A stretch of 64,000 nucleotides of DNA from an uncultured Vicinamibacterales bacterium (GTDB lineage Bacteria > Acidobacteriota > Vicinamibacteria > Vicinamibacterales > JAKQTR01). This document shows, one piece after another, positions 1-22,014 of this stretch (position 1 is its first letter; each line of letters begins with the position of its first letter). Location of the stretch: assembly GCA_964396055.1 (NCBI GenBank), contig CAYNDV010000005.1, forward strand, positions 772 through 64,771, written 5' to 3'. A model generated the notes under the pieces. That model was given only the letters and a program-made list of their open reading frames with translations. It had not been told where the DNA came from and searched no databases. The translations under genes were made by a program, and so were the position numbers.

Positions 1-193
1 TCCAGCCGTTGAAGTCGCCCACCACGGCCACGCCCGCGGCATTGGGCGCCCACACGGCGAAGCGCAGCCCGCTCACGCCGTCGTGCTCGACGACGTGCGC
101 GCCCAGCTTGCGGTAGATCTCGAAGTGGCGGCCTTCGCCGAAGAGGTGAAGGTCGAGGTCGGACAGGAGGGATGCGTCGTTCATGGCGGTCAT
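1..193 (-). CDS. glgB: 1,4-alpha-glucan branching enzyme, 5' portion (runs off the window start)
   Basis: Not in the ORF track. Manual translation from ATG 193: [64 protein letters not shown]. The LGAH...FAVWAPNA...VGDFNGW pattern is the GlgB N-terminal signature. Confidence 0.9.
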
Positions 194-287
194 CAGTACC
201 CAGCGCCTGCGGTCCGGAGTTCGTCGCGGGTCAGGACCCACGGACCAGTGCCCACGAGAGTTGCCCGTCCCTTCGTGGCGTCCGGCT

Positions 288-1208
288 TCAGCCGGACGCG
301 ATGAACTCCCCTTCAGCCACGAGAACGGCCTCGCCACCGACGCGCACGCTCGTGATCTCCGCCCCGTCGACGCCGATGGCGATGTGAATCCAGCTGGGCC
401 GCCCCATCTTCGCGCCCTGCAGGCTCAGGATGCCGCCGGCCCGCTCCGGCGGCACCACGCCGCACCTGACGAGGTAACACCCCAGCGGCCCGCTGGCCGA
501 CCCCGTAGCCGGGTCCTCGAAGATGCCCAGCCGCGGCGCGAACATGCGCGAGTACACGGTGGCGGCATCCGGTCCGCCCTCGGTCGAGAAGACGAACGCG
601 CCGTGGTCGTCCGCGCCGGCCGCGCGGCACATCGCCGTGAACGCTGCGCCGTCGGCCGACGCCGCGTCCACGTCGGCCCGCGTGCCCAGCGGGATGAAGA
701 CGAACGGCACGCCGCACGAGACTTCCTGCACCGGCAGGCCGGTGCGCCGGATGGCCAACTCGTCCACGCCCACGGCGCGCGCGGCGGCCGCCACATCAGC
801 GACCACCGGCCCGAAGACCGGCCGCCGCTGGTTCATCCACACGAAGCGGGGTGCGCCGCCGCTCCAGTCGATGTCCACCGGCGTCGGCCCCACGTTGAGT
901 CCGAACACCCAGCGCGCCCGCCCCGCGGGAATGATGCCGTCGTGCGCCAGGGCGAAGGTGGACCCCACCGTCGGGTGGCCGGCCATGGGCATCTCCTCGC
1001 CGGGCGTGAAGATCCGCATGCGGATGTCGGTGTCGGGCCGCTCCGGCGGCAGGACGAACGTGGACTCCGAGAAGTTGATCTCGCGGGCAATCGCCTGCAT
1101 CAACTCCCCGCTCAGGCCGTCGGCCTTCGGGAAGACCGCGAGCTGATTGCCGCCGAACCGCCGGCTGGTGAACACGTCCAGGTGCAGGTATCGGTATCGC
1201 TGGGACAT
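288..1208 (-). CDS. PhzF-family isomerase/epimerase
   Basis: DVFT...[35 protein letters not shown] and EDPATGSA motifs. Start moved to ATG 1208 (MSQRYRY). Confidence 0.9.
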
Positions 1209-1341
1209 CGGCACGACCTCAGCCGCCACGGGGAGCCGGAACGCCCTCCATGCTACCCCCAAACGGCACCGCGGGCGTGAATCGCGTGGGCTGCCGCACG
1301 TCACAGGCCGGCAGGTTTGACGTCCGCACGGCCTTGCAGGC

Positions 1342-1350
1342 TGTTAGGAT
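1342..1350 (+). promoter_or_regulatory. Extended -10 element (TGtTAGGAT) upstream of the cyclophilin gene
   Basis: TGn-TAnnnT pattern in the phzF/cyclophilin divergent intergenic region; no correctly spaced -35. Confidence 0.4.
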
Positions 1351-1401
1351 GGGGGGTCATCGTCGGCCCTGCGGCGGACTGTCCCGGAAAGGGGAAACGG
1401 T

Positions 1402-2004
1402 GTGATGCCGAGGAACACCTGCCCGTTCGCCTTCGTCACTCTACTCGTGCTGGCGCTTGGCGCCGGCGCCCTCGCGGAGACCACCATGCAGCCAGGCACG
1501 TACGCCACGTTCCAGACCACCGACGGCACGTTCACCATCCGGCTGTTCGAGGCCGAGACCCCGGTGACGGTCGCCAACTTCATCGGACTCGCGGAAGGCA
1601 CGATCGAGTGGACCGACCCGCGCAACGGCAAGAAGACGAAGCAGCCGTACTACGACGGCACCATCTTCCACCGGATCATCGACGGCTTCATGATCCAGGG
1701 CGGCGACCCCCTCGGCCAGGGCACCGGCGGGCCAGGCTTCACCTTCAAGGACGAGTTCCACCCGTCGCTGAAGCACGCGAAGGAAGGCATCCTGTCGATG
1801 GCCAACCGCGGGCCCAACACCAACGGCGGCCAGTTCTTCATCACCCTCGCGCCGACGCCCTGGCTCGACAACAAGCACAGCGTCTTCGGCGAGGTGGTGG
1901 AAGGCATGGAGGTGGTCCGCCAGATCGGCAAGGTGCCCACAGGGGCCGCCGACCGCCCGGTGAAGGATGTGCGCATCGAAAAGGTCACGATCACGAGGCG
2001 GTGA
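1402..2004 (+). CDS. ppiA: Cyclophilin-type peptidyl-prolyl cis-trans isomerase with signal peptide
   Basis: [50 protein letters not shown]; hydrophobic N-terminus. Confidence 0.92.
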
Positions 2005-2013
2005 TGAGGGGAA

Positions 2014-2040
2014 GGCCGTTCGGCCGTTCGGCCGTTCGGC
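2014..2040 (+). repeat. Short tandem repeat (GGCCGTTC)x3
   Basis: ggccgttc at 2014, 2022 and 2030, starting 9 nt after the cyclophilin stop. Confidence 0.9.
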
Positions 2041-2065
2041 GGTCACGCGCGCGCGGAGTACACCT

Positions 2066-4141
2066 ATGCGTCATTCACCGGTCGGACTCGTGCTGGTGCT
2101 GCTGGCCGTCGGTTTCTCAGCCGCAGACCCTCTCCCCGCGACCGCGTCGCGTGTGGTCGACTACCAGATCAGCGTGAAGCTGGACCCGCAGACGCACCAG
2201 CTCACGGGGACGGAGCGTCTCACGTGGCGCAACCCGTCCTCCGAGCCCGTGCCCGACCTGTGGTTCCACCTGTACCTGAACGCCTTCAAGAACACGAAGT
2301 CGACCTTCTACCGGGAGTCGGGCGGGCAGCTGCGCGGCGACCGGGCAGCGTCCGATTCGTGGGGCTGGATTGACGTCACGTCAATCCGGCTCTCGGGCGG
2401 AGCGGATCTCAAGGGGGCCCTCACCTTCGAGCATCCGGACGATGACAACGCCGACGACCAGACGGTGGCCCGCGTGCTGCTGCCGGAGGCGGTGCCCGCC
2501 GGCGGCTCGGTGACGCTGGAGATCGCCTTCACCGCGAAGCTGCCGCAGGTGTTCGCCCGCACCGGCTACAAGGACGACTTCTACCTCGTCGGCCAGTGGT
2601 TCCCGAAACTGGGGGTCTACGAGCCCGCCGGCATGCGGGGCCGCGCCACGGGGGGCTGGAACTGCCATCAGTTCCATGCCTCGTCCGAGTTCTACGCCGA
2701 CTACGGGACCTTCCGCGTCGAGATGACGGTGCCGTCCAGCTACGTGCTGGGCGCGACGGGCGTGCGGGTGGCCGAGCGGAAGAACGCCGACGGCACCACC
2801 ACCTACACCCACGAACAGGCCGACGTACACGACTTCGCCTGGACGGCCGACCCGGACTATCTCGTCGTGAAGGACACCTTCTCGGCCACGAAGGACGTCA
2901 CCCCGGCCGAATACCAGCGGATGGCCCAGCTCCTGGGACGGTCCCTGGACGAGGTGATGCTGTCCGACGTGGCAATCACCGCCCTTGTCCAGCCCGACCA
3001 CGCGCCGCAGGCGCAGCGGCACATCGACTCGGCGAAGGCCGCCATCAAGTGGTACGGCCTCTGGTATGGACGGTATCCCTTCAAGACGCTGACCGTGGTG
3101 GACCCCGCCCCGGGGGCCGGCGGCGCCGGGGGCATGGAGTACCCGACGCTCATCACGGCGGGCACCAGCTTCGTCTTCAACCGGTGGCCCCTCGACAAGG
3201 TGCGCGGCCTCGAGATGGTCACGATCCACGAGTTCGGCCACAACTTCTGGTACGGGCTCGTGGGCAACAACGAGTTCGAGGAGGCGTGGCTCGACGAGGG
3301 GCTCAACTCGTACTCGACCGGCAAGGTCATCGACACGGTGTACGGCGCGGACCGCGGGATGGTGGAGTTCCTCGGGCTGCGCATCGGCGAGGCCGACGTC
3401 CTGCGCGTCGTCAACAGCCCCGAGGCGAAGTACAACCGCATCCTCGCCCGGGCGTGGGACTACGTGCCGTCGGGCGACTACGGGTTCTATTCGTACCAGA
3501 AGCCCGAGCTGATGCTGCGCACCCTCGAGGGGCTGCTCGGGCAGCAGACCATGGCCCGCGTCATGCGGACGTACCACGAGCGCTGGCGCTTCGGGCACCC
3601 GCGCAGCGACGACTTCTTCGCCGTGGCGAACGAGGTGGCGGGTCAGGATCTCACCTGGTTCTTCGACCAGATCGTCCGCGGCACCGGCACCGTCGACTAC
3701 GACATCGGCTCGGCGATGACCCGGCAGCTGCCCGAGCCGCACGGCGTCTTCGACACGCCCCAGGGCCGCACGACCGTCTCGCGCGCGGACGCGCTGAAGG
3801 TGGACGCCGGGCGCGCCGCAGAGAAGCGCGCCCAGTACGAGTCGGTGGTCATCGTGCGGCGCCGCGGCGAAGCGTACGTGCCCGTGGAGGTGGCGTTCAA
3901 GTTCGAGGGCAAGCCCGTGGAGCGCCTGGCGTGGGACGGGCGCGACACGGCGAAGAAGTTCCACTTCCTCCGGGGCGAGAAGCTGGAATGGGTGGACATC
4001 GACCCCGATCGCAAGATCGCGCTCGACACCAACTGGCTGAACAACGGCCGGCGCATCGGCCCCGACACCCGGGTGTCCACGACGTGGACCGCCCGCTGGC
4101 TGTTCCTGGTCCAGAACGTCGTGGCGTGGCTGGGTCTCTGA
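2066..4141 (+). CDS. M1-family zinc aminopeptidase, secreted
   Basis: GGMEYP exopeptidase motif, HEFGH...WLDEG (HExxH-x18-E), signal peptide; ATG 2066 with GGAG RBS. Confidence 0.9.
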   Translation: MRHSPVGLVLVLLAVGFSAADPLPATASRVVDYQISVKLDPQTHQLTGTERLTWRNPSSEPVPDLWFHLYLNAFKNTKSTFYRESGGQLRGDRAASDSWGWIDVTSIRLSGGADLKGALTFEHPDDDNADDQTVARVLLPEAVPAGGSVTLEIAFTAKLPQVFARTGYKDDFYLVGQWFPKLGVYEPAGMRGRATGGWNCHQFHASSEFYADYGTFRVEMTVPSSYVLGATGVRVAERKNADGTTTYTHEQADVHDFAWTADPDYLVVKDTFSATKDVTPAEYQRMAQLLGRSLDEVMLSDVAITALVQPDHAPQAQRHIDSAKAAIKWYGLWYGRYPFKTLTVVDPAPGAGGAGGMEYPTLITAGTSFVFNRWPLDKVRGLEMVTIHEFGHNFWYGLVGNNEFEEAWLDEGLNSYSTGKVIDTVYGADRGMVEFLGLRIGEADVLRVVNSPEAKYNRILARAWDYVPSGDYGFYSYQKPELMLRTLEGLLGQQTMARVMRTYHERWRFGHPRSDDFFAVANEVAGQDLTWFFDQIVRGTGTVDYDIGSAMTRQLPEPHGVFDTPQGRTTVSRADALKVDAGRAAEKRAQYESVVIVRRRGEAYVPVEVAFKFEGKPVERLAWDGRDTAKKFHFLRGEKLEWVDIDPDRKIALDTNWLNNGRRIGPDTRVSTTWTARWLFLVQNVVAWLGL

Positions 4142-4161
4142 GGCACCGGAGGAGGACGATC

Positions 4162-5154
4162 ATGCTGACCAGTCTCATCAAGGGCCTCTGGACCGCGCTG
4201 AAGACGCCGAAGCTCGTGCTGCTGCTGTGGCTGTGGACGCTGCTGCTGGGCCTCGCGGCGGCCATGCCCGCGCGGGCATGGTTCAGTGCGGCCCTGGATC
4301 GGTCGCCGGAGGCCGCAGGGCTGCTGACCCGCTTCAGCTTCGGCACGTTCGCGGATCTCTCGAAATACCAGGCCATCGGGCCGCTCGCCCTGCTCGTCGC
4401 CGGCATCACCGGCATCGCCATCGTCGCCCTGGCCGGCAGCGCGTTTGTCGGCGGCGGCCTGATCGAGGTCATCGGCAGCCCCGCGGACTCGCGCACCTTC
4501 ATGCACCGCTTCTTCCGGGGCGGCGGCCACTTCTTCTGGCGGTTCGTCCGGCTCGCCGTGACGGCGGCGGTGCTGGGCGGCGTCGCCGTCGCGGTGGCGG
4601 CGGCCGCGGCAGGCGCGGCCGTCGAGCCCTTCACCGACTCGGAGTGGGAACCGGCCGGCCTGTTCTGGGGCCTGGTCGCGGCGGGTCTCGCCGGGCTCAT
4701 CGGCTTGTGGTTCGTCCTGGCGCTCGACTACGCCCGGATCCGCACGGCACGCGACGGCAGCCGCGGCATGGTGCGCGTCTACCTCGGATCGCTGGCGTTC
4801 GTGGCCCGGCACGTCGCCGGCACCTACCTCATCGCCCTGACGTGCCTGGCGGTGACCGGCGCGCTGCTCTTCGCCTACGTCGCGCACGAGGCCGCCTGGA
4901 CGATGTCTTCCTGGGCCGCGATCGGCATCCTGATCGCCACCCAGCAGGTCATCGTGCTGGCCCGCGCGGGCGTGCGGGTCACGCAGGTGGCGGCCGAGTG
5001 GCATTACTTTGCGGCGGCAGCGCCCCTGGTCCCGGCCACGTCACCGGTTGCGGCGGTGACGACGGCGGCGGTGGTTTCGTCGCCCGCTGAACCGGTGGCC
5101 GCCCCGCCAGACGAGCCGACACCCGAGGCGGGCGTGGCCCCACGGCAGGAGTGA
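4162..5154 (+). CDS. Multi-pass membrane protein of unknown function
   Basis: ATG 4162 after GGAGGAGG; about 6 hydrophobic segments and a Pro/Ala-rich tail. It is the 3' part of track ORF 2596..5154. Confidence 0.75.
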   Translation: MLTSLIKGLWTALKTPKLVLLLWLWTLLLGLAAAMPARAWFSAALDRSPEAAGLLTRFSFGTFADLSKYQAIGPLALLVAGITGIAIVALAGSAFVGGGLIEVIGSPADSRTFMHRFFRGGGHFFWRFVRLAVTAAVLGGVAVAVAAAAAGAAVEPFTDSEWEPAGLFWGLVAAGLAGLIGLWFVLALDYARIRTARDGSRGMVRVYLGSLAFVARHVAGTYLIALTCLAVTGALLFAYVAHEAAWTMSSWAAIGILIATQQVIVLARAGVRVTQVAAEWHYFAAAAPLVPATSPVAAVTTAAVVSSPAEPVAAPPDEPTPEAGVAPRQE

Positions 5155-5169
5155 GGCCCGGGCCTGCCC

Positions 5170-6489
5170 ATGCCTCAGACGCCGCTGCCCGCTTCGCTGC
5201 TGGCCTTCGCCACGACCCTGCACGTCGCCCTGCTCGTGCTGCGGCGGCACCGTCATCCAGCTGGGTCGTTCCCCTGGCCGGTGCTGCCGTCGATCGCGTT
5301 CGCCGCCAGCCCGTGGGTGTTCTCGACCACGACCGGCACGGCCGCGGGCCTGATCGTTCACCTGGCGTGGTTCATGGCCTGCGAATGGCTGATCCCGCGC
5401 CCCGCGCCTCCGTCCACGGCGACGGTCGCGGCGCCACCATCGCCGGCGCCCGCCGCTCGTCCGATCGCCACGCCGCGCGATTTCGTGCCGCTGCCCGTGC
5501 TGGCCGTCGTGGACGAATCGCCCACGATCCGCACGTTCCGCCTGTCGAGACCGTCCGGCTTCGCCTTCGAGGCCGGCCAGTTCCTCACCGTGCGGATCCA
5601 GGCGGACGGCAAGCCGCTCGTGCGCTGCTACTCGATCAGTTCGGCGCCCGAGGCGTCGGGCTACCTGGAGATCTCGGTCAAGCGGCAGGGACGGGTGTCG
5701 GGCCTGCTGCACGCCACGGTGCGGCCGGGTTCGCACCTCATGGTCCGCCCTCCGGCCGGCCGGTTCGTGTACCCGGCCCGCGACGACCGCCCACTCGTGC
5801 TGGTGGCGGGCGGCGTCGGCATCACGCCGCTCATCGCGATGCTGCGCCACGCGGTGGCCACCGAACCGGGCAGGCCGGTCACGTTGTTCTATTCGGCTCG
5901 GGGCCGCGACGAACTGGCCTTTGCCGACGAGATCGCGTGGCTGACCCGCCGCCATCCACAGGTTCGTGTCGTGACGATCCTGACCGGGCTGCCCGGTGCC
6001 GCGCCCGGGAACGGGCGACTGGGCGGCAACGTGCTCGCCACGCACATCCCTGACGCGGCCCACGCCGTGTTCATGATCTGCGGACCCGAGGCCATGATCC
6101 GCGACGTCCGCGCGGCGCTGACCGATCTCGGCGTGCCGGCCGATCAGATCCGGTCCGAGGTGTTCCAGCCGGCGGCCGCCATCGGCGCGAAACCGGCCGC
6201 AGACACCGAACAGCCGGCCGCCGCCCATGGCGTCGTCACGCTCACCCTGGCCCGCAGTCGGCGGACGGTACCCGTGCCGGACGGGCAGTCCCTGCTCGAG
6301 GCCGCCGAGGCTGCCGGGACCCCGGTGCCGTCGTTGTGCCGGGCCGGCGTCTGCCGCACCTGCCGGACCCGCCTGGTGTCGGGCGAGGTGTCGTGCTCCT
6401 CCGACGCGCTCGACAGCGCCGAGCGGGCCGAGGGCTGGACGCTGCCCTGCGTGGCCTGGGCGAAGACGGACTGCACGCTCGATGCGTGA
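5170..6489 (+). CDS. Membrane-anchored FAD/NAD(P)H oxidoreductase with C-terminal [2Fe-2S] ferredoxin (FNR/PaaE-like)
   Basis: RCYSISS (FAD), VAGGVGITP (NAD(P)), FMICGP, CRAGVCRTC...C (2Fe-2S); N-terminal ~75 aa with 2-3 hydrophobic segments. Confidence 0.88.
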   Translation: MPQTPLPASLLAFATTLHVALLVLRRHRHPAGSFPWPVLPSIAFAASPWVFSTTTGTAAGLIVHLAWFMACEWLIPRPAPPSTATVAAPPSPAPAARPIATPRDFVPLPVLAVVDESPTIRTFRLSRPSGFAFEAGQFLTVRIQADGKPLVRCYSISSAPEASGYLEISVKRQGRVSGLLHATVRPGSHLMVRPPAGRFVYPARDDRPLVLVAGGVGITPLIAMLRHAVATEPGRPVTLFYSARGRDELAFADEIAWLTRRHPQVRVVTILTGLPGAAPGNGRLGGNVLATHIPDAAHAVFMICGPEAMIRDVRAALTDLGVPADQIRSEVFQPAAAIGAKPAADTEQPAAAHGVVTLTLARSRRTVPVPDGQSLLEAAEAAGTPVPSLCRAGVCRTCRTRLVSGEVSCSSDALDSAERAEGWTLPCVAWAKTDCTLDA

Positions 6490-6492
6490 GAG

Positions 6493-6544
6493 GGCCATTC
6501 GGCCGTTCGGCCATTCGGCCCTGTGACCATTCAGCCGTTGGGCC
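6493..6544 (+). repeat. Degenerate 8-bp tandem repeat array (GGCCRTTC)
   Basis: ggccattc ggccgttc ggccattc ggccctgt gaccattc agccgttg ggcc, starting 3 nt after the reductase stop. Confidence 0.85.
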
Positions 6545-6550
6545 TACAAT
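6545..6550 (+). promoter_or_regulatory. -10 element TACAAT 6 nt before GTG 6557 (probable leaderless promoter)
   Basis: tacaat-tccccc-GTG with no Shine-Dalgarno; possible -35 gtgacc at 6523-6528 (16-nt spacer). Confidence 0.5.
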
Positions 6551-6556
6551 TCCCCC

Positions 6557-7375
6557 GTGACCCGTCGACGAGACCCCTTCGCGCTCGTACACGTGCTCGT
6601 CGTGAGCGCCATCGCGACGCTGCTGGTTGGCATCTGGGTGTTCATCGACCTCGGCGGCTGGTCGTACTACACCACCCCGCTGCGGGTTCGCGGCTACGCG
6701 CCGGCGCACGCCGCCCTGAAGCCCTCGGGCACCGTGGCGCACCTGCTGGGCGTCATCGGGCTGGCCATGATGACGGTGCCCGTCGTCTATTCGGTCCGGA
6801 AACAGTGGTCCCGGCTGGCGAACGCCGGGTCGCTGGCCACCTGGCTCGAGGTGCACATCTTCTGTGGCACCGTCGGGCCCGTCCTGGTCACGTTGCATTC
6901 CTCGTTCAAGTTCAACGGCCTCATCTCGGTGGCGTACTGGTCGATGGTGCTGGTGGCGCTGTCCGGCTTCGTCGGGCGCTATCTCTACGTGCGCATCCCG
7001 CGGACGATTCGCGGGGTGGAGTTGTCCCGCGAAGACATCGAGCGGCGGACGTCGGCGATCACGCAGAGCGTCGCGACGCTCGGGAGCGGCGAAACACTCG
7101 ACCTCCTGCGCGACGCGCGAGCCGACACGTGGCGGGCGCGGCGCCGCCTGCGGCGCGCGCTGATCGCCGCAGGCGTCGATGCCGCGACGGCGCAGGGGAT
7201 CACCGAGACCCTGGCGGAACGCGACGCGCTCACGCGGCGGCTGCGGCACCTTGCGCGCACGCAGCGCCTGTTTGCCGCGTGGCACGTGTTCCACCTGCCA
7301 CTGGTCTACGTGATGTTCGGCATCGCCGCCCTGCACGTGGCGCTCGCGATCTACATGGGCTACTCATTCTTCTGA
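6557..7375 (+). CDS. His-rich inner-membrane protein, cytochrome-b / ferric-reductase-like transmembrane domain
   Basis: 5-6 hydrophobic helices with His in or next to them: AHLLGVIG, WLEVHIFCG, LVTLHSS, WHVFHLP, ALHVAL; SGFVGRYLY motif. The heme b role is inferred. Confidence 0.65.
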   Translation: MTRRRDPFALVHVLVVSAIATLLVGIWVFIDLGGWSYYTTPLRVRGYAPAHAALKPSGTVAHLLGVIGLAMMTVPVVYSVRKQWSRLANAGSLATWLEVHIFCGTVGPVLVTLHSSFKFNGLISVAYWSMVLVALSGFVGRYLYVRIPRTIRGVELSREDIERRTSAITQSVATLGSGETLDLLRDARADTWRARRRLRRALIAAGVDAATAQGITETLAERDALTRRLRHLARTQRLFAAWHVFHLPLVYVMFGIAALHVALAIYMGYSFF

Positions 7376-7430
7376 GGCCGTTCGGCTGTGGGCCGTTCGG
7401 CCACTTGGCCTTCTGGCCGATCGGTCGGAC
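7376..7430 (+). repeat. Degenerate 8-bp tandem repeat array (GGCCGTTC-like)
   Basis: ggccgttc ggctgtg ggccgttc ggccactt ggccttct ggccgatc ggtcggac, directly abutting the stop at 7375. Confidence 0.85.
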
Positions 7431-7490
7431 GTCGATGTCGCCGAGCCTCGAGCCGAACGGCCTCTCTGCGATCCAGTCTCATGACCGGGG

Positions 7491-7506
7491 TGGCACGCCG
7501 GATGCT
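7491..7506 (+). promoter_or_regulatory. Sigma-54 (-24/-12) promoter upstream of the giant cytochrome gene
   Basis: TGGCACG-CCGG-ATGCT gives exact GG-N10-GC spacing (consensus TGGCACG-N4-TTGCW), about 105 nt before ATG 7612. It overlaps a TGcTAGACT extended -10 at 7503-7511. Confidence 0.6.
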
Positions 7507-7611
7507 AGACTCCCGCCTGGCAATCTCCGGCAACACCCTGTCGCGCCCCCACCGCGGCGTGCGCGATCGTATTGGCTGCCGCGATCGCCGTTCTCTGTCC
7601 CCGGGGGCCCC

Positions 7612-10600
7612 ATGCCACGTGCCATCCTTCCGGCTGGTCCGGCGAACCGCTTCAGCCAGATCGCCCGCCTCGTCCTCCTGCTGGCCGTCGGCGTGCTCGT
7701 GACGGCCCGCCCCAGCGCGGCACAACTGGGCCAACTGGCGTCGCCGGGACCGCTGTCCAAGGCTCACGCGTCCCTCGAAGGCGCGGCCAACTGCCAGAAA
7801 TGCCACGAACCCGGCCGGAAAGTCACAGCGTCGTTGTGCCTCTCCTGCCACAAGCCGGTCGCCGACCGGATCCGGTTGAAGAAGGGCGTCCATCGGGAGG
7901 TCGGGGACGACTGCGTCGGGTGCCACGTCGAACACCAGGGCCTGGATGGCGAACTGCGGCCCTTCGATCCCTCCGGGTTCAATCACGCTGTGGACGCGGG
8001 CTTCCCGCTCGACGGCCGCCACGCCCCGATTGCCGGCAGCTGCGCGAAGTGCCACAAGACCCGGTCGTTCCTCACCGCGTTACCATCGTGTAATTCCTGC
8101 CACACGGACGAGCACAAAGGGACACTGGGCACCGACTGTCAGCGTTGCCACACCACGGCGGTGCCGTTCAAGGCCGCGAAGAACGTCTTCGATCACGGGA
8201 AGACCGCCTTCCCCCTGGCGGGGGCTCACCAGCGGGTCGACTGCGCGAAGTGCCACGTCAACGGGCGCTACAAGGGCCTGGCCTTTGCCCGGTGCACGGA
8301 CTGCCACACGTCGCCTCATGCGCCATCGATCGGGGCCGACTGCCTGACCTGCCATACCAGCGACGGCTGGCGCACGCAGAAGATCGACCACGCCCGGACG
8401 GCGTTCCCGCTGCGCGGCGCCCATGCGGCGGTGCCGTGCGCGAAGTGTCATACGAAGCCGGCCACGAAGGCGAAGCCGAAGTCCGCCACGTGCGCGTCGT
8501 GCCACGCGGATCCGCACAAGGGCAGCTTCAGGCAGGACTGCTCGGCGTGTCATACGGAGAACGGCTTCAAGAGCGCGCGCTTCGACCATGCGACCACCCG
8601 GTTCGCCCTGACGGGCCGGCACCAGGCGCTGGCCTGCGCCGCCTGCCACAAGAACACCCCGTCGGGCGGACAGGCGCGTCCGGGCACGACGGTGGACTTC
8701 CGCGGCCTGCGCACCACGTGCGTGTCGTGCCACCAGGACGTGCACAAGGGCGAACTGGGCACGGCGTGCGAGTCGTGCCACACGACGGCCACCTTCAAGG
8801 TGTCGTCGTTCCAGCACCCGCGGTTCCCCGAGTTCTTCGGCGGCCGCCACAAGGGCGTCGCCTGCGCCGCGTGCCACGTGCCCCAGGCGCCAGCGGCCCC
8901 GGCCCGGACCGGCGCGCCGGTGAGCGGTATGCGCTTCAAGGGGCTCGCCAACGCGTGCACGGCCTGCCACAAGGACCCGCACCTCGGGCAGGTCGGCACC
9001 GCGTGCGAGTCGTGCCACACCGTCGACGCAGCCAGGTTCGCGCCGGCGAAGTTCTCGCACGACGCGGCGGCGTTCAAGCTGACGGGCCGGCACCAGGGCG
9101 TCGCATGCCGCCAGTGCCACAAGCCCGAAACGGGCGCCTTCCCGGCCGGGCGCGGCACGGCCGTTCGCCTGAAGGGCCTGTCGGCCGCCTGTGCGTCGTG
9201 TCACCGCGATCAGCACCTCGGGCAACTGGGCACGGCATGCGAAACCTGCCACACGACGGCGTCCTTCAAGGTCCCGTCGTTCACCCACCGGAACCAGGCC
9301 CGGTTCATGACGGGCCGTCACGCCGCGCAGCCCTGCTCCGCCTGTCACAAGTCCGAGGAGCGCGCGTACCCCGGCGGCACCGGCACGGCCGTCCGGTACA
9401 CGATGGGGCCGTCGTGCGCGGCGTGTCACACGGATCAGCACCAGGGCCAGATGGGGCCGGCATGCGAGCGGTGCCACACGCCCGAATCGTGGCGGGTGGT
9501 CTCGCGCGCGTTTCACAAGACCGGTGTCTTTCCCCTCGAGGGCCGGCACCTCGCCGTGGCGTGCGCCGCGTGCCACGTCAACGGCGCCATCAAGGGCACG
9601 CCGACACGCTGTTACGACTGTCACTGGATCCGGCGGCAGGACGACCCCTACCGCACGCGCCTCGGCAACGAGTGCGAGACGTGCCATCGGCCGATCTCGT
9701 GGGCGGCGGTGAACTGGAACCACGGCACGATGACGGGCGTGCCGCTCAGTCCGGTGCACAGGGCCCTGGGCTGCGACGGCTGCCACAAGACGAGGACGTT
9801 CACCCGCGGCAGCGTGACCTGTTTCTCGTGCCACCAGGAGGACTACCAGGCCGCGCGCGAACCCAATCACGCCGCCGCCGGCTTCCCGACGACATGCGAG
9901 GCCTGCCACCGGGCCTCGCACGTGTCGTGGACGCAGACGACCTTCAACCACAGCGCGAGTTTCCCCCTGGCCGGCACCCACGCCACGCAGACCTGCGCGG
10001 CGTGCCACCGCAACAACGTCTACACGGGCACGCCGCGCGACTGCGTCGGCTGCCACCGGGCCGACTACGACCGCACCGCGGCGCCGCCCCACGCGGCAGC
10101 GGGCTTCCCCGTGTCGTGCGAGTCGTGCCACCGCTTCACCGACGCCAGCTGGCGGGGCGCGGCATTCAACCACAACACGTTCTACCCGCTCGCGGGGACG
10201 CATGCGACGCAGGCGTGCGCGGCCTGCCACCGCAACAACGTCTACAAGGGCACGCCCCGCGACTGCGTCGGCTGCCACCGGGCCGACTACGACCGCACCA
10301 CCAGCCCGAACCACGCCTCCGCAGGATTCTCGACGGCGTGTGAGTCGTGCCACCGCGCCTCCGACACGACGTGGCGGACCACTTTCAATCACAACGCGGT
10401 GTACCCGTTGACGGGCCGGCACGCGGCCGCCGACTGTGCGGCGTGCCACAGGAACAACGTCTACAAGGGCACGCCCCGCGACTGCGTCGGCTGTCACCGC
10501 ACCGACTACGACCGCACCACCAGCCCGAACCACGCCTCCGCAGGGTTCCCGACCACGTGCGAGGCGTGCCACAGGGCCTCGGACACGACGTGGCGGACCA

Positions 10601-11256
10601 CCTTCAACCACAGTGCGGTCTACCCGCTCGCGGGCCGTCATGCCACCGCCGCCTGCGCCTCGTGCCACGTCAACAACATCTATAAGGGCACGCCGCGCGA
10701 CTGCTTCACGTGCCACCGCGCCCGGTACGACGCAACGACGAGCCCCAACCACCGCGCCGCGGGGTTCCCCACCGCGTGCGAGCAGTGCCACAGCCCGGCG
10801 GCCGCCGCGTGGTCCGCGAGTTTCGACCACAACCGTTTCTTCCCGCTCCTCGGGCGCCATCTGAGCGCGCCGTGCAGTTCGTGTCACCGCAATAGCGTCT
10901 ACCGTGGCACGCCGCGCGAGTGTTACCCGTGCCACCAGGCGCAGTACGACGGCACGCGCAACCCGAATCACCGGGCCGCGGGGTTCCCGACCACCTGCGA
11001 AACGTGCCACCGGGCCGCGGATTCGTCCTGGAGCCAGGGGCGCTTCAATCACACCTGGTTCCCCATCACGTCGGGCAAACACGCCGGCCGCCAGTGCGCG
11101 GAGTGCCACCAGGATCCGGGCAACTACAAGGTGTTCCAGTGCACCACCGCGTGCCACCCGCGCGGCGAGATGGACGATGAACACCGCGGCCGTGCCGGAT
11201 ACCGCTACGAGTCGGCCGCCTGTTACAGTTGCCACCCGACCGGGCGCGACGACTAG
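7612..11256 (+). CDS. Giant secreted multiheme cytochrome c: 1214 aa, 47 CxxCH + 1 CxxxCH, 16 triheme repeats
   Basis: Motifs counted by hand. Repeat unit: FxH...FPLxGxH...CxxCH...CxxCH...H...CxxCH. Sec-type signal (RLVLLLAVGVLVTARPSAA/Q), no lipobox. ATG 7612 is in frame with track ORF 6523..11256. Confidence 0.93.
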   Translation: MPRAILPAGPANRFSQIARLVLLLAVGVLVTARPSAAQLGQLASPGPLSKAHASLEGAANCQKCHEPGRKVTASLCLSCHKPVADRIRLKKGVHREVGDDCVGCHVEHQGLDGELRPFDPSGFNHAVDAGFPLDGRHAPIAGSCAKCHKTRSFLTALPSCNSCHTDEHKGTLGTDCQRCHTTAVPFKAAKNVFDHGKTAFPLAGAHQRVDCAKCHVNGRYKGLAFARCTDCHTSPHAPSIGADCLTCHTSDGWRTQKIDHARTAFPLRGAHAAVPCAKCHTKPATKAKPKSATCASCHADPHKGSFRQDCSACHTENGFKSARFDHATTRFALTGRHQALACAACHKNTPSGGQARPGTTVDFRGLRTTCVSCHQDVHKGELGTACESCHTTATFKVSSFQHPRFPEFFGGRHKGVACAACHVPQAPAAPARTGAPVSGMRFKGLANACTACHKDPHLGQVGTACESCHTVDAARFAPAKFSHDAAAFKLTGRHQGVACRQCHKPETGAFPAGRGTAVRLKGLSAACASCHRDQHLGQLGTACETCHTTASFKVPSFTHRNQARFMTGRHAAQPCSACHKSEERAYPGGTGTAVRYTMGPSCAACHTDQHQGQMGPACERCHTPESWRVVSRAFHKTGVFPLEGRHLAVACAACHVNGAIKGTPTRCYDCHWIRRQDDPYRTRLGNECETCHRPISWAAVNWNHGTMTGVPLSPVHRALGCDGCHKTRTFTRGSVTCFSCHQEDYQAAREPNHAAAGFPTTCEACHRASHVSWTQTTFNHSASFPLAGTHATQTCAACHRNNVYTGTPRDCVGCHRADYDRTAAPPHAAAGFPVSCESCHRFTDASWRGAAFNHNTFYPLAGTHATQACAACHRNNVYKGTPRDCVGCHRADYDRTTSPNHASAGFSTACESCHRASDTTWRTTFNHNAVYPLTGRHAAADCAACHRNNVYKGTPRDCVGCHRTDYDRTTSPNHASAGFPTTCEACHRASDTTWRTTFNHSAVYPLAGRHATAACASCHVNNIYKGTPRDCFTCHRARYDATTSPNHRAAGFPTACEQCHSPAAAAWSASFDHNRFFPLLGRHLSAPCSSCHRNSVYRGTPRECYPCHQAQYDGTRNPNHRAAGFPTTCETCHRAADSSWSQGRFNHTWFPITSGKHAGRQCAECHQDPGNYKVFQCTTACHPRGEMDDEHRGRAGYRYESAACYSCHPTGRDD
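9994..10872 (+). repeat. Near-identical intragenic tandem repeats of 219-222 nt (one triheme module each)
   Basis: First-Cys codons of successive modules at 9994, 10216, 10435 and 10654; long DNA identity such as aacaacgtctacaagggcacgccccgcgactgcgtcggctg and gactacgaccgcaccaccagcccgaaccacgcctccgcagg. Confidence 0.9.
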
Positions 11257-12651: not shown

Positions 12652-12863
12652 GGCGGGTCGGTCTATCGGCCACGCACACCCTGGTGCCCCGCCCGCCACG
12701 CCCCCTGGCAGGCGGGTGATGCGCCAGGTTCATGTACGCACGGACCTCGGACACGCAGGGCCCCCCATGCGCTCCCGCAGTGCTGCAGGATGGCCCCGGC
12801 GGACCCGGATCCGGCCGGCAGGCTGCTCCGCCGCGATTCGCCACGCGGCTACGAGGGGGTTTC

Positions 12864-14747
12864 ATGAGTCTTTTCGCGCGTACGGGATCCACCACCGCCA
12901 TCGCGGCCCGGCTGGCCGTGTGCCTGCTCGCGGCGTTGCCCGGGCTGGTGCCGGGCACGGCCTGGGCCGGCCAGTCCGGCACGGCCGCGGCTGAACAGGC
13001 CGAACCGCCGGCCGAGAAGGCGCCGTCCGCCTTCAAGTGGAACTGGGACAACACCATCACCTACGGCATCGGCGTCCGCGTGGCCGATGCGGACAAGGAC
13101 CTCATCGGCAAGGCCGCCGGGGGCAATGCCTTCTCGGTGAACTCCGACGACGGCAACCAGAACTACAAGAAGGGGCTGTTCACGAACGCCGTGAAGATCA
13201 CGAGCGAGTTCGAGTTCAGCTACAAGAACGTGGGCGGCTTCGTCCGCGGCTTCGCGTTCTACGACTTCACCAACGAGAACGGCGACCGGGCGCGCACGCC
13301 GCTGACCGAGGACGCGAAGGACCGCGTGGGCAGCCGGGCGGAGTTCCGCGACGCGTTCCTGTGGGCGCGGTTCCGGCTCGGCAAGCTGCCGGGCGAGATC
13401 CGCGGCGGCTGGCAGGTGATCAACTGGGGCGAGAGCACGTTCATCCAGGGCGGCATCAACGCCGTGAACCCGGTGGACGTCAGCGCCCTGCGCGTGCCCG
13501 GCGCGGAGTTGCGCGAAGCGCTGCTCCCGGTGGGCGCCGTGAAGTTCAGCGTCAAGCCCTCGTCGAACACGTCGCTCGAGGCGTTCTACCAGTTCGCCTG
13601 GGAGCAGACGAAGATCGACCCCGTGGGCAGCTACTTCAGCACGTCCGACATCGCCGGCGCCGGCGCGTCGAAGGTCATGCTCGGGTTCGGATCCGTCCCG
13701 GACAGCGTCAATGCCGGCCACGCACCGTTCCCGCCGACCTACAGCCCGGTCGGCTCGGTCGTCCCGAAGAAGGACGACCAGAAAGCCAGTGACGACGGGC
13801 AGTACGGCGCGGCGCTGCGCCTGTTCGCGCCGGCCCTGGGCGGCACGGAGTTCGGACTCTACTACCTGAACTACCACAGCCGCCTGCCGCTCATCATGGC
13901 CAGGACCGGAACGGCCCAGGGCCTGTTCGGGGGCAACTACGCGGCAACGGCCCACTACTTCCTGACCTACCCCGAGGACATCCAGCTCATCGGCGGCAGC
14001 TTCAACGCCCAGCTGGGCCGCACGGGCATCGCGCTGCAGGGCGAGGTGTCGCACCGCCTCGACGTGCCGCTGCAGCTCGACGACGCGGAGCTGCTGTATT
14101 CGGCGCTGACGCCCCTGCGCCGCCTGCCGCCGCTGCCGCAGCTGGCGCCGCTCATCGGCCTCGGCACGCTGCTCGCCAACAACGCGCAGACCGGCGCCTA
14201 CGAATTCGACCAGCTCGTCACCGGCTACAAGCGGTTCGACACGACCCAGGTGCAGCTGACCGCCACCAAGGTGTTCAGCCAGGTCTTCGGCGCGGACCAG
14301 ATGACGCTGGTGGCCGAGGGCGCGTGGAGCACGGTGCACGACATGCCCGATCAGAGCGTGCTCCGCCTGGACGGGCCGGCCACCTACACCAGCGGCAACG
14401 CCATCTTCACCCAGGCCGGCATCCAGCCCGCCACCGAAGCCGCCTCGGCATTCCCGACGGCGAGCGCGTGGGGCTACGTGGTGGCCGGGCGCCTGGAATA
14501 CAACAACGCCATCGGCGCCACGTCGATGATCCCGCGCTTCTCCTTCGCGCAGGACGTGTCGGGCATCTCGCCGGGGCCCGGCGGTAACTTCCTCGAGGGC
14601 CGCAAGTCGCTCACGCTCGGGCTCGGCTTCCAGTACCGGATCAACTGGGAGTTCGACGTCAGCTACACCAGCTTCTTCGGGGCTGGCCGCTACAACCTGC
14701 TCGGCGACCGCGACTTCGTGGCGGCCAACATCAAGTACTCCTTCTGA
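12864..14747 (+). CDS. DUF1302-family outer-membrane protein
   Basis: NSDDGNQNY, INWGESTFIQGGINAVNPVDVSALRVPGAELREALLP, YLNYHSRLP, ends DRDFVAANIKYSF. Start at ATG 12864 after GAGGGGG. Confidence 0.85.
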   Translation: MSLFARTGSTTAIAARLAVCLLAALPGLVPGTAWAGQSGTAAAEQAEPPAEKAPSAFKWNWDNTITYGIGVRVADADKDLIGKAAGGNAFSVNSDDGNQNYKKGLFTNAVKITSEFEFSYKNVGGFVRGFAFYDFTNENGDRARTPLTEDAKDRVGSRAEFRDAFLWARFRLGKLPGEIRGGWQVINWGESTFIQGGINAVNPVDVSALRVPGAELREALLPVGAVKFSVKPSSNTSLEAFYQFAWEQTKIDPVGSYFSTSDIAGAGASKVMLGFGSVPDSVNAGHAPFPPTYSPVGSVVPKKDDQKASDDGQYGAALRLFAPALGGTEFGLYYLNYHSRLPLIMARTGTAQGLFGGNYAATAHYFLTYPEDIQLIGGSFNAQLGRTGIALQGEVSHRLDVPLQLDDAELLYSALTPLRRLPPLPQLAPLIGLGTLLANNAQTGAYEFDQLVTGYKRFDTTQVQLTATKVFSQVFGADQMTLVAEGAWSTVHDMPDQSVLRLDGPATYTSGNAIFTQAGIQPATEAASAFPTASAWGYVVAGRLEYNNAIGATSMIPRFSFAQDVSGISPGPGGNFLEGRKSLTLGLGFQYRINWEFDVSYTSFFGAGRYNLLGDRDFVAANIKYSF

Positions 14748-14755
14748 GGCAGATC

Positions 14756-16111
14756 ATGCGAACGACGGCACGATATCTCGCGACTTTCACGCTCGTTCTC
14801 GCGGCAGCTGCCGTGTGGTTCACGGCGGTTCCCTCCGGCCAGGGCGGCCTGCCGGCCAGCCTCACGCCCCTCGGCGGCGAGAAGGCGGGCAACGCGGCGG
14901 GCACCATTCCCGCGTGGGACGGCGGCATCACGAAGCCGCCGGCCGGGTACGTCCCCGGCCGCCACTACGTGGATCCCTTCGCGGCCGACAAGCCGCTCTT
15001 CACGATCACCCAGCAGAACGCCGGTCAGTACGCCGCCCAGCTCTCCGAGGGGCACAAGGCGATGCTGAAGACGTACCCGACCTTCAAGATGGTCGTCTAT
15101 CCGACCCGCCGGTCGGCTTCGGTGCCGCAGCGCATCTACGACGCGGCGCAGAAGAACATGACGACCGCCAAGCTGGTCAACAACGGCAACGGCGTGGACG
15201 GAGCCCTGGCGGGACCGCCGTTCCTCACGCCGAAGACCGGCCAGGAAGTGATCTGGAACCACCTGCTCCGGTTCCGCGGCGAGACGATGGCCCGCTGGAT
15301 CTCGCAGGCGACCCCGACGCGCGGCGGCCAGTTCACCGTCGTCGACTTCGAAGAGGAGTCGATGGTGGTGTACGCGCAGCCGAACATGACCGCGGCGGCC
15401 CTCAACAACCGCCTCGTGTACTTCAAGCAGACCGTGACGGCGCCGGCCCGGCTGGCGGGCGGCATCCTGCTGGTGCACGAGACCCTGGACCAGGTGAAGA
15501 AGCCGCGTGACGCGTGGCTCTACAACCCGGGCCAGCGCCGCGTGCGCCGGGCGCCCCAGGTGGCCTACGACAACCCCGGCACCGCCGCGGACAACATGCG
15601 GACCACCGACCAGCTCGACCTGTTCAACGGCGCGCCGGACCGCTACGACTGGAAGCTCGTCGGCAAGCGGGAAATCTACGTGCCGTACAACGCGTACCGG
15701 CTGCAGGATCCCAAGCTCAAGTACAAGGACATCGTCACGCCGCTGCACATCAACCCCGAGCACCTGCGCTACGAGCTGCACCGGGTGTGGGTGGTGGAAG
15801 CGACGCTGCGCACCGGCGAGCGCCACATTTATAAGAAGCGCGTCTTCTACATCGACGAGGACAGCTGGTCGGCGCTGATCGTGGACCAGTACGACAACCG
15901 CGACCAGCTCTGGCGCGTCTCCGAGGGGCACGTGATGAACTTCTACAACGTGCCGCTCGTGTGGACGTCGGCCGAGGTGCACACCGACCTCCAGGCCGGG
16001 CGCTACCTCGTCATGGGGCTCTTCAACGAGAGCCGGCCCCACAACTTCCAGCTGAAGCGCAGCGAGGCGGACTTCACCGCCGACGCGCTCCGGCAGGAGG
16101 GCGTGCGGTAG
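14756..16111 (+). CDS. DUF1329-family periplasmic protein
   Basis: GNAAGTIPAWDGG, AWLYNPGQRRVRRAPQVAYD, YDWKLVGK, RYELHRVWVVEATL, FYIDEDSW. Confidence 0.9.
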   Translation: MRTTARYLATFTLVLAAAAVWFTAVPSGQGGLPASLTPLGGEKAGNAAGTIPAWDGGITKPPAGYVPGRHYVDPFAADKPLFTITQQNAGQYAAQLSEGHKAMLKTYPTFKMVVYPTRRSASVPQRIYDAAQKNMTTAKLVNNGNGVDGALAGPPFLTPKTGQEVIWNHLLRFRGETMARWISQATPTRGGQFTVVDFEEESMVVYAQPNMTAAALNNRLVYFKQTVTAPARLAGGILLVHETLDQVKKPRDAWLYNPGQRRVRRAPQVAYDNPGTAADNMRTTDQLDLFNGAPDRYDWKLVGKREIYVPYNAYRLQDPKLKYKDIVTPLHINPEHLRYELHRVWVVEATLRTGERHIYKKRVFYIDEDSWSALIVDQYDNRDQLWRVSEGHVMNFYNVPLVWTSAEVHTDLQAGRYLVMGLFNESRPHNFQLKRSEADFTADALRQEGVR

Positions 16112-16114
16112 TCA

Positions 16115-16146
16115 GGGGGCAAGGGGCAAGGGGCAGGGGGCAAGGG
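16115..16146 (+). repeat. Short tandem repeat (GGGGCAA/GGGGCAG)x4
   Basis: gggggcaaggggcaaggggcagggggcaaggg directly after the DUF1329 stop. Confidence 0.8.
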
Positions 16147-16149
16147 AAG

Positions 16150-17166
16150 ATGACTGCACAGCGCATGTTCTCGACACACCGCAACCAGCGCCCACTCTGC
16201 TCCGGGCCGCTCCTGATCGGGGCGGCCGCCCTCGTCGCCGTCGTGGCGGCGGGCGGCAGCGCCCTCGGGCTGGCACAACAAGCGCCTGAGTCGGGGGCCG
16301 AGCGGGCCGTGAAGGCCTTGCTCGCCCCCGAGTCGTGGCTCACCGACGTGGCCGCCCGGGACGGCGGTCTCGTCGCCGTGGGCGAGCGCGGCCATATCCT
16401 CCGCTCCACCGACGGCGGACAGACGTGGACGCAGTCCGACGTGGAGACCCGCGCGCTGCTGACGGGCGTGGCGATGCGGGGCCAGCTGGGCTGGGCTGTC
16501 GGCCACGACGAAGTGGTGGTCCGGACGCGCGATGGCGGTGCCACGTGGCAGCGCGTGCACAACGCGCCGGAGCGGGAGCAGCCGTTGCTCGACGTCTGGT
16601 TCGCGGACGATCGGCGCGGGCTCGCCGTCGGCGCCTATGGCACGCTCGTCGCCACCGCCGACGGCGGGGACACCTGGGACTCCCGGACGATCCACGAAGA
16701 CGACGACTACCACCTCAACCAGATCGCGGCCGCCGCCGACGGCACGTTGTTCGTCGCGGGGGAAGCGGGCCACCTGTATCGCTCCACGGATGCGGGCGCC
16801 ACCTGGCAGCCGCTCCCCTCGCCCTACGAGGGATCGTTCTTCGGGCTGCTGCCCCGCCGCGACGGCTCGCTGCTGGCCTTCGGCCTGCGCGGCCATCTCT
16901 ACCGATCCGCCGACCGGGGCGAGACGTGGACGGTGATCGAGACCGGCACGGTCGAGACGCTGACCTGCGCCCTGGAACTCGGCAACGGGCGATTCGTGGT
17001 CGGGGGCATGGCGGGCACGCTGCTGTGGAGCGATGCCGCCGGCACCGGCGTCACGCTGCAGGAACTGCCCGACCGCAAGGCCATCGTCGCGCTCGCCCCG
17101 GGGGCGGACGGCACGGTGACGATGGTGGGCGAAGGCGGGGCGCGGCGCGCCCGAATCCCCCAGTAG
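16150..17166 (+). CDS. YCF48-like / BNR-repeat beta-propeller protein
   Basis: Repeated VGxxGxILxSxDGGxTW units ([40 protein letters not shown]). Confidence 0.85.
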   Translation: MTAQRMFSTHRNQRPLCSGPLLIGAAALVAVVAAGGSALGLAQQAPESGAERAVKALLAPESWLTDVAARDGGLVAVGERGHILRSTDGGQTWTQSDVETRALLTGVAMRGQLGWAVGHDEVVVRTRDGGATWQRVHNAPEREQPLLDVWFADDRRGLAVGAYGTLVATADGGDTWDSRTIHEDDDYHLNQIAAAADGTLFVAGEAGHLYRSTDAGATWQPLPSPYEGSFFGLLPRRDGSLLAFGLRGHLYRSADRGETWTVIETGTVETLTCALELGNGRFVVGGMAGTLLWSDAAGTGVTLQELPDRKAIVALAPGADGTVTMVGEGGARRARIPQ

Positions 17167-17178
17167 GCAGGTCGAAGC

Positions 17179-21994: not shown

Positions 21995-22014
21995 CATGGG
22001 GTGCTCCGGGAGCG

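Follow-up and report, generated by a model that had tools for sequence, protein, structure and literature searches.

A 48-heme cytochrome and its gene partners in an uncultured Vicinamibacterales bacterium: a candidate PCC3-like electron conduit

The window analysed here is a stretch of 64,000 nucleotides (nt) of 70% GC from an uncultured Vicinamibacterales bacterium of the phylum Acidobacteriota (assembly GCA_964396055.1, contig CAYNDV010000005.1, positions 772 to 64,771). It contains a gene for a multiheme cytochrome, which an earlier note, made from the letters of the sequence, had described as a single polypeptide with 48 heme sites, together with three further genes on the same strand: a reductase and a membrane protein before it and a barrel protein after it (Table 1). 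This four-gene cassette, which is common in uncultured Acidobacteriota, probably serves to move electrons out of the cell, from its interior through the inner and the outer membrane. The following sections describe the genes, the family to which the cytochrome belongs, and the route that electrons would take, together with the explanations that compete with it.

The 48-heme cytochrome and its partner genes

A recount of the motifs confirmed that the open reading frame (ORF) encodes one protein with 48 heme sites, namely 47 CxxCH motifs and a single CxxxCH (residue 1177). All of its 96 cysteines lie within these motifs, while its 96 histidines are divided into 48 proximal ones, inside the motifs, and 48 outside them; there are seven methionines, none of them conserved. 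The protein has 25.3 residues per heme, arranged in 16 repeated modules. In 2000 shuffles of the same composition CxxCH occurred 0.62 times on average and five times at most, so that the observed number is far above chance. The frame is open throughout and its GC content at third codon positions (GC3) is 0.91. The extension of the ORF upstream to a GTG at 6523, as listed by the ORF finder, is an artefact of the high GC content, because another gene, read in a different frame, lies within the added segment (6557-7375).

Table 1. Features of the cytochrome cassette, in positions of the window (aa, amino acid residues of the encoded protein; TM, transmembrane)
Feature	Position	Strand	Remarks
Membrane-anchored FNR-type reductase, 439 aa	5170..6489	+	two N-terminal TM helices, FAD_binding_6, NAD_binding_1, C-terminal plant-type 2Fe-2S domain
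Inner-membrane protein, 272 aa, five TM helices	6557..7375	+	predicted diheme b-type cytochrome with the inner-membrane protein ('IMP') signature of PCC3/PCC4
48-heme cytochrome ORF	7612-11256	+	ATG 7612, stop 11254-11256, 1214 aa
Sec signal peptide of the cytochrome (aa 1-37)	7612..7722	+	hydrophobic core, S-A-A before Q38
Module 1, N-terminal triheme module (aa 38-105)	7723..7926	+	spacing 15, 25; kept in long and short forms
Modules 2-8, seven type-A c7-like triheme modules (aa 106-622), 21 hemes	7927..9477	+	PF14522 8e-10 and 3.6e-20
Module 9, junction (aa 623-692)	9478..9687	+	spacing 16, 21
Modules 10-15, six type-B triheme modules of 73-74 aa (aa 693-1133), 18 hemes	9688..11010	+	variable-number array
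Module 16, C-terminal cap (aa 1134-1214; range includes the stop codon)	11011..11256	+	spacing 15, 27; single CxxxCH
Predicted outer-membrane beta-barrel, 437 aa	11268..12581	+	signal peptide, C-terminal Y-R-F, about 22 strands

The signal peptide is predicted to be cleaved at about A37/Q38; it has no lipobox and is not a lipoprotein signal, and the first cysteine of the protein already belongs to a CxxCH motif. The N-terminus of the mature protein (LGQLxSPGPLSKAHA) is kept among the relatives of the cytochrome. Besides this ORF, no further c-type cytochrome gene was found within the 64-kb window, and an exact look-up of the cytochrome in an assembly index returned no match.

The spacings of the motifs split cleanly into 16 triplets, which bears out the earlier description of 16 triheme modules of two types, with modules 1, 9 and 16 standing apart as special ones. 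The two linkers that had been distinguished are also present as described: the short one belongs to modules 2-8 (type A), which share a constant second gap of 16 residues and the pattern D-x-H-x-G-x-x-G-x-x-C, and the longer one to modules 10-15 (type B), with gaps of 16 and 25 residues and the pattern D-Y-x5-P-N-H-x-x-A-G-F-P-x-x-C. The cap ends in G-Y-R-Y-x-S-A-A-C-Y-S-C-H-P and is conserved, at 46-82% identity, in nearly all of the loci described below.

The conservation of the heme ligands was scored on an alignment of 40 relatives. Of the 48 histidines outside the motifs, 47 are conserved at 80-100%, the exception being H770 (30%), and module 9 has only two conserved distal histidines for its three hemes. 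These two observations support a set of 47 bis-His hemes and one heme, at the junction between the A and B modules, that would have no conserved histidine partner; the equality between 48 hemes and 48 non-motif histidines is a coincidence. The near-complete bis-His ligation that had been proposed is essentially borne out, but the rule of three histidines per module fails in module 9. Further marks of this module are the invariant stretch C-x-D-C-H-W-x-R-x-x-D-D...L-G and K636, likewise invariant; its unpaired heme may be five-coordinate or bound by a ligand other than histidine.

The barrel gene begins 12 nt past the cytochrome stop codon. The AlphaFold2 model of its product, built on an alignment of 36 sequences, is of good quality (mean pLDDT 84.7, pTM 0.73) and has 22 long strands. 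The top 50 structures that Foldseek returned for this model were generic barrels, Occ porins and the FimD usher only, and the sequence has no match in Pfam or NCBIfam. According to standard barrel geometry (a hand calculation), 22 strands give a C-alpha diameter of about 4 nm, and on this model the barrel could accommodate a single triheme module (about 10 kDa), because TonB-dependent receptors, which also have 22 strands, enclose plugs that are larger than such a module. The barrel family has 680 members at E <= 1e-3, and a genome scan with its profile found 61 loci, all of them in metagenome-assembled genomes (MAGs) and nearly all in Acidobacteriota (Vicinamibacterales, Thermoanaerobaculia, Holophagae and Sulfomarinibacteraceae); the closest relatives, at 75% identity, come from Vicinamibacterales, in keeping with the window's GC content of 70%. 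In every locus with flanking DNA a multiheme cytochrome gene adjoins the barrel gene, and it lies upstream of it in all but three loci.

The protein encoded immediately before the cytochrome has, across 31 sequences of its family, three invariant arrangements: W96-x3-H100-x13-H114 in TM3, S136-G137-x-x-G140 in TM4 and W242-x3-H246-x13-H260 in TM5. The IMP of the PCC3 and PCC4 clusters has been described as a protein of five helices with SGxxG on TM4 and WX3HX13H on both TM3 and TM5 (PMC5566968), and it has been read as a diheme b-type cytochrome that resembles the ferric-reductase domain (He et al. 2017, PMC5566968). This signature is complete in the 272-residue protein and, being common to PCC3 and PCC4, does not separate them. 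In the same 31 sequences there are weak Pfam matches to DUF4405 (26/31), Ferric_reduct (23/31) and Ni_hydr_CYTB, of the cytochrome b561 type (8/31), and DUF4405 proteins bind heme b (PMC11334425). Against PF01794 and PF14358 the window protein gave E-values of 2.9 and 1.2, and the best members of its family 8.9e-4 and 4.7e-4, all of them below the gathering scores; a profile search of the PDB returned nothing other than coiled-coil noise in the cytoplasmic loop. The four-histidine geometry predicts that the protein holds two b hemes. An exhaustive profile search found 3861 clusters (at 50% identity) with E <= 1e-3, and the cluster names of the distant relatives include one Fidelibacterota MAG and none tied to the named PCC3 hosts. 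Some gene calls in the family (among P0369, P0437, P0491, P0498 and P0477) join a 2Fe-2S domain to the five-helix protein, and in others it is c7-type cytochromes that are joined to it. Whether real fusions or products of read-through, such calls show the three parts to be neighbours.

The reductase at the head of the cassette has Pfam matches to Fer2 (3e-18), NAD_binding_1 (7e-16) and FAD_binding_6 (3e-12), and its NCBIfam matches, which resemble NADH oxidoreductases and PaaE, fall below the curated cut-offs. In 12 orthologues the motifs RCYSISS and GGVGITP and the cysteines 390, 395, 398 and 427 are invariant. The reductase is proposed to be the NAD(P)H-side input of electrons.

Family, module grammar and resemblance to PCC3

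Pfam assigns to the cytochrome a Cytochrome_C7 match (PF14522) of 170.5 bits, with a cut-off of 24.8, in 12 stretches that all lie in the N-terminal half, as well as matches to Cytochrom_CIII, Cytochrom_c3_2 and the MtrC/MtrF II-IV domain. When the pieces of the protein were searched separately, the c7 matches were confined to modules 2-8 and the type-B array gave none, matching instead Cytochrom_CIII (3e-15), Cytochrome_C554 (2e-10) and MtrC/MtrF II-IV (2e-10). All NCBIfam matches of the cytochrome were below their cut-offs, among them TIGR04257 nanowire_3heme (28.6 vs 40) and TIGR03508 DmsE/MtrA (59.3 vs 192.2), and sequence searches of the PDB with the whole cytochrome and with each half gave weak matches to nitrite reductase and cytochrome c554, with GSU1996 and MtrA absent from the results.

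Among the candidates scored, 2609 relatives of the cytochrome were counted at E <= 1e-10, with about 21 to 138 hemes across the family; those with names come from Thermoanaerobaculia, Holophagales and Acidobacteria MAGs. The best 120 of these 2609 have 33-85 heme motifs, a multiple of three in 93/120. The order module 1, modules 2-8, module 9, n type-B modules and cap is followed by 94 of them, and seven type-A modules are present in 88, a number that is constant in the long-form family. The spacings of this long form are M1[15,25], M2-M8[x,16], M9[16,21], type B [16,25] and cap [15,26-27]. The relatives differ almost solely in the number of 73-residue type-B modules, which goes from three (L032) to 36 (L049) among orthologues. 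There are also short forms, of 21-30 hemes, which keep modules 1, 2 and 9, the B array and the cap and lack modules 3-8; they were found in seven loci (L006, L010, L011, L020, L032, L039 and L064).

The largest member lies in L049 (positions 1-9897; contig CAVRZJ010000024.1, Acidobacteriota MAG MFD05942.bin.2.248), an uninterrupted ORF of at least 3299 residues with 134 CxxCH and one CxxxCH, which is open at the edge of the locus and is missing module 1; about 138 hemes are implied for the whole protein, above the quoted record of 113 heme motifs (PMC11492766). A protein with 49 hemes has been reported beside a porin in Burkholderiales (PMC7399161) and one with 85 hemes in a PCC3 cytochrome (PMC5566968). 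By these motif counts, a chain of 48 hemes is ordinary within its own family, and cytochromes so rich in heme had already been noted by genome mining.

The distribution of the reductase and membrane-protein genes was counted in 43 loci, namely those whose cytochrome gene is complete and preceded by 2.8 kb of DNA or more. In 24 of the 43 both genes come immediately before the cytochrome gene, in the same direction and with short gaps; three more loci, with less flanking DNA, have them too. Most long-form loci, like the window, have both genes before the cytochrome, and none of the seven short-form loci has either of them nearby.

The origin of the long chain is suggested by two loci in which the cytochrome is split. 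In both L003 (a Lewinellaceae MAG, Bacteroidota) and L004 (an Eisenbacteria MAG) a barrel-like gene of about 535 residues is preceded by genes for a small and a giant cytochrome, and homologues of the membrane protein lie near the giant one. The small cytochrome of L003, with 22 hemes, a signal peptide of its own and, in its mature form, the same N-terminus, is collinear with residues 44-581 of the window protein (36% identity, E 9e-118), and that of L004, with 15 hemes, matches best at residues 197-553. The giant cytochromes (82 hemes in L003, 59 in L004) match the type-B array best and end in the same cap. Module 1 and modules 2-8, with 24 hemes together, thus correspond to the separate small cytochrome of the split systems.

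This arrangement resembles that of the PCC3 clusters, which are known as predictions from genome sequences and still await biochemical characterisation (PMC5566968, He et al. 2017; PMC9900912, a pangenome of the Gallionellaceae). In these clusters a periplasmic cytochrome, with 21, 24 or 27 hemes, is accompanied by an extracellular one with 10-85 hemes, by a porin and by an IMP (PMC5566968, PMC9900912). Because the two halves are separate genes in L003 and L004, the window cytochrome looks like a fusion of the periplasmic and extracellular cytochromes of a PCC3-type system. The likeness extends to the porin gene beside a heme-rich, repetitive cytochrome with about 25 residues per heme; to a periplasmic part of 21-27 hemes in multiples of three, with an outer part that varies; and to the IMP of about 300 residues and five helices, with SGxxG and WX3HX13H, all elements of which are in the 272-residue protein of the window. 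There are also clear differences: PCC3 has two cytochromes, whereas a single 48-heme polypeptide is found in the window; PCC3 porins have up to 42 predicted membrane-spanning segments, compared with 22 predicted strands here; a reductase with NAD(P)H, FAD and 2Fe-2S domains precedes the IMP here, and the two descriptions make no mention of one (PMC5566968, PMC9900912); and the hosts are Proteobacteria there and Acidobacteriota here. The earlier note had overlooked PCC3, the closest system described, along with the diheme-b inner-membrane protein and the upstream reductase, and had compared the cytochrome with GSU1996 of Geobacter.

That comparison is valid for modules 2-8 only. Like the window cytochrome, GSU1996 and GSU0592 (12 hemes) and GSU2210 (27 hemes) string triheme domains together in a single polypeptide; the c7 profile is matched by modules 2-8, and the ideas of a wire and of a capacitor apply to both. 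However, each domain of GSU1996 has one His-Met heme (PMC10138318), while the window cytochrome is predicted to be bis-His, with no His-Met heme and no conserved methionine; its type-B modules have no c7 match, and its TIGR04257 score is under the cut-off. The Geobacter c7 polymers are described, moreover, as periplasmic, with no mention of a porin partner (PMC10138318). The cytochrome is best read not as a stand-alone rod like GSU1996 but as the fused cytochrome of a PCC3-like cassette.

Other systems share particular features with the cassette. In MtrCAB/MtoAB and OmaB-OmbB-OmcB a multiheme cytochrome is sheathed by a barrel from a neighbouring gene, the principle proposed for the window too, but no sequence homology was detected: the barrel has no family match and the TIGR03508 score of the cytochrome is far from the cut-off. 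The MtrB barrel has 26 strands, compared with 22 in the window, and the window has one chain of 48 hemes instead of 10 + 10 hemes and no separate lipoprotein cytochrome at the surface. The NOX, FRE, MsrQ-Fre and DUF4405 proteins offer a parallel on the inner-membrane side, since two histidine pairs, carried by a pair of parallel helices, could hold two b hemes and a flavin NAD(P)H dehydrogenase works on the cytoplasmic side. In the window, however, the dehydrogenase is encoded by a gene of its own, is anchored in the membrane and carries a 2Fe-2S domain in addition; the membrane protein, with its five helices, has Pfam matches far under the gathering scores, and the acceptor would be a multiheme c-type wire, not O2, Fe(III) chelates or MsrP. 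A preprint on extracellular electron transfer in peat was also considered; it deals with other Acidobacteriota systems, with cytochromes of 8-13 hemes, and not with the cassette of the window.

The proposed conduit and its alternatives

Taken as a whole, the cassette is explained here, with moderate confidence, as a PCC3-related conduit in which a fused 48-heme chain, fed by NAD(P)H, passes through the barrel to the outside. In this scheme NAD(P)H would reduce the FAD and then the 2Fe-2S cluster of the reductase, and electrons would traverse the inner membrane via the two b hemes of the membrane protein and enter the N-terminal block of 24-27 hemes, which could span the periplasm. The chain would pass the outer membrane within the barrel, plausibly at the junction module 9, and the type-B array would lead outside to the cap, which would meet an external acceptor, for instance humic matter or minerals of Fe(III) or Mn(IV); in all, the chain would hold up to 48 electrons. 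Such a route would bypass the quinones and export negative charge, and would therefore serve redox balancing or metal reduction, not proton pumping. The more detailed version, a four-gene quinone-bypassing route made of a split NOX-like module, a periplasmic wire of 24-27 hemes, a barrel at the junction and an outer array of 9 to about 108 hemes in relatives, is put forward tentatively, as a possibility that is on balance doubtful.

The dimensions of the chain can be estimated by analogy. The 12 hemes of GSU1996 extend over 12 nm, which makes about 1 nm for each (PMC10138318), and a length of 35 nm for 27 hemes, about 1.3 nm per heme, has been set against a periplasm of 17 nm (PMC11492766). 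At these values the N-terminal part would measure 24-35 nm and the whole chain 45-60 nm. It had been suggested earlier that a chain of 16 modules would exceed the width of the periplasm and may thread a barrel, and this idea is strengthened by the adjoining 22-strand barrel, by the 3-36 type-B modules of the family and by the separate halves of the split systems, although we infer the topology itself, as well as the geometry, the direction in which electrons flow and the degree of heme loading. An outside location of the array is favoured over a purely periplasmic one because its length varies twelve-fold, which fits poorly with a periplasmic gap of fixed width, because the short forms never carry the inner-membrane partner, and because the B array is a protein in its own right in the split systems.

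Several observations weigh against this explanation. The AlphaFold2 model of the mature cytochrome, built on the 40-sequence alignment, is unusable (pLDDT 52.9, pTM 0.25), so that neither extension nor threading nor an outward end can be read from it, and Foldseek returned noise for it, with E above 3. Kinship of the barrel to MtrB or OmbB was not detected by Pfam, NCBIfam or Foldseek, and a chain loaded with heme would have to cross, or be enclosed by, a barrel of 22 strands. The cassette family is known from sequence alone, with MAGs at 61 of the 61 loci and no cultured host among them, and the proposed kinship to PCC3 relies on the published descriptions of its clusters. The input side is not general either: the reductase and/or the membrane protein are absent within 10 kb of the cytochrome in 19 of the 43 loci, and in L001, which has a 70%-identical 48-heme relative, what is left of the reductase is a remnant of residues 5-76, the N-terminal TM part (L001:2991-3206), while the membrane protein is deleted. 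The input from NAD(P)H is therefore not obligatory; its distribution among the loci makes it an optional addition in one sub-lineage and no general feature. Finally, PCC3 has been proposed for electron uptake in iron oxidisers, so that, by analogy, electrons could also flow the other way.

It is on this last point that one alternative rests, in which the conduit would run inward: Fe(II), Mn(II), reduced humics or a partner cell would supply electrons, and the diheme-b protein and the quinones would receive them. PCC3 is found in Fe(II) oxidisers and has been modelled as a route to the quinones via the IMP (PMC5566968, PMC9900912), multiheme wires are reversible in principle, and a link to quinones is plausible in the 19 loci that lack the complete input pair. 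In the window, however, the partner is a reductase with NAD(P)H, FAD and 2Fe-2S domains, and the reduction of NAD(P)+ by Fe(II), against the membrane potential, would be strongly uphill judging by standard potentials; uptake is considered quite improbable here. A role as a periplasmic capacitor, where a flexible or folded-back chain would store up to 48 electrons and the barrel would be a docking or exit point for the cap, is thought unlikely, albeit to a lesser degree. GSU1996-type c7 polymers are regarded as periplasmic capacitors (PMC10138318), and the match of modules 2-8 to c7, the plain Sec signal with no lipobox and the position of the barrel gene next to the gene end that encodes the conserved cap would all agree with such a role. 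Both capacitor and wire roles have been discussed for PCC3 cytochromes (PMC9900912), and storage is compatible with all the data, as any chain of 48 hemes stores charge. What speaks against confinement to the periplasm is that a dedicated barrel always accompanies the cytochrome, that in the split homologues the protein with the B array is separate, as in PCC3, and that the largest chains, with as many as 36 B modules (about 138 hemes), would be cramped in a periplasm some 17 nm wide.

A different kind of doubt concerns the module count, which could have been altered by misassembly of the repeats, or the heme count, if many sites were free of heme in vivo. The earlier note had itself named an assembly artefact among the results that would overturn its claim, and there are grounds for the concern: an exact direct repeat of 66 nt is shared by modules 11 and 12 (10036-10101 = 10258-10323), the short-read contig of the same strain in an independent Logan assembly (L005, SRR12133403) breaks inside the type-B array, at window position 10515, and many nanopore MAG copies have frameshifts. 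Nevertheless, the type-B units, which recur with a period of 219-222 nt, are 66-84% identical at the DNA level and not nearly identical, the L005 contig has four mismatches in 10145 nt from position 10515 onward, and relatives at 63-70% identity likewise carry 48 motifs, so that an assembly artefact is unlikely, even if an error of one module is formally possible given the 66-nt repeat. In the alignment of 40 proteins the differences are gains, losses and register shifts of type-B modules of 60-74 residues only, and relatives with 45, 48, 51 or 54 hemes follow the same grammar. The continuous open frame with its high GC3, the presence of every cysteine in a motif and the 47 conserved distal histidines point in the same direction, and a misjudged number of modules or hemes is thus regarded as very improbable.

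Wider neighbourhood and significance

In Vicinamibacterales the cassette occupies one chromosomal site, after the genes of an M1 peptidase and of a 330-residue membrane protein (window 1967-5154; also L001, L007, L010-L013, L015-L017, L020, L022 and L064). The content of this site varies, with long or short cytochromes, with or without the input genes, and with inverted gene order. The 330-residue protein (4162-5154) has no family match and travels with the peptidase; a 322-residue gene upstream in L001, considered as a homologue of the membrane cytochrome, turned out to be a homologue of this protein, which lies outside the cassette.

After the barrel gene there are four co-directional genes (12732-19524) that encode a DUF1302 protein (671 residues), a DUF1329/LolA-like protein (451 residues), a BNR/YCF48-like protein (16150-17166) and an RND transporter of the HAE3/MMPL type (781 residues). 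They look like a set for the transport of lipids or other hydrophobic compounds in the envelope. The DUF1302, DUF1329 and RND genes were considered as members of the cassette and rejected, as they are not conserved with it and were found only in L005, which is the same strain. Further on, two Proton_antipo_M subunits (NuoL/Mrp-type) and a NuoB-like Oxidored_q6 protein with 4Fe-4S domains (19952-27575) suggest a membrane complex of the Mrp/Mbh type. On the reverse strand there are genes for a RACo-like protein, with 2Fe-2S and ASKHA domains of reductive activators of corrinoid enzymes (34900-36375), and for a PhzF-family protein (288-1304). A scan for promoters and terminators was uninformative.

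Acidobacteriota are among the most abundant bacteria of soils and sediments, and their machinery for extracellular electron transfer is uncharacterised. The cassette is widespread in their MAGs, with 680 relatives of the barrel and more than 2600 of the cytochrome, and its modular grammar predicts a constant half that spans the periplasm and a variable half outside the cell. If one chain does cross the outer membrane, its biogenesis is a puzzle, since a heme-loaded polypeptide would have to be present on both sides of the barrel. If NAD(P)H feeds the wire directly, the cassette would be a bacterial counterpart, of multiheme type, to the ferric reductases and NADPH oxidases of eukaryotes, and it would be relevant to the reduction of iron and humic matter in soil. 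PCC3, so far a purely bioinformatic system, would gain a second set of variants: fused, short-form and reductase-linked.

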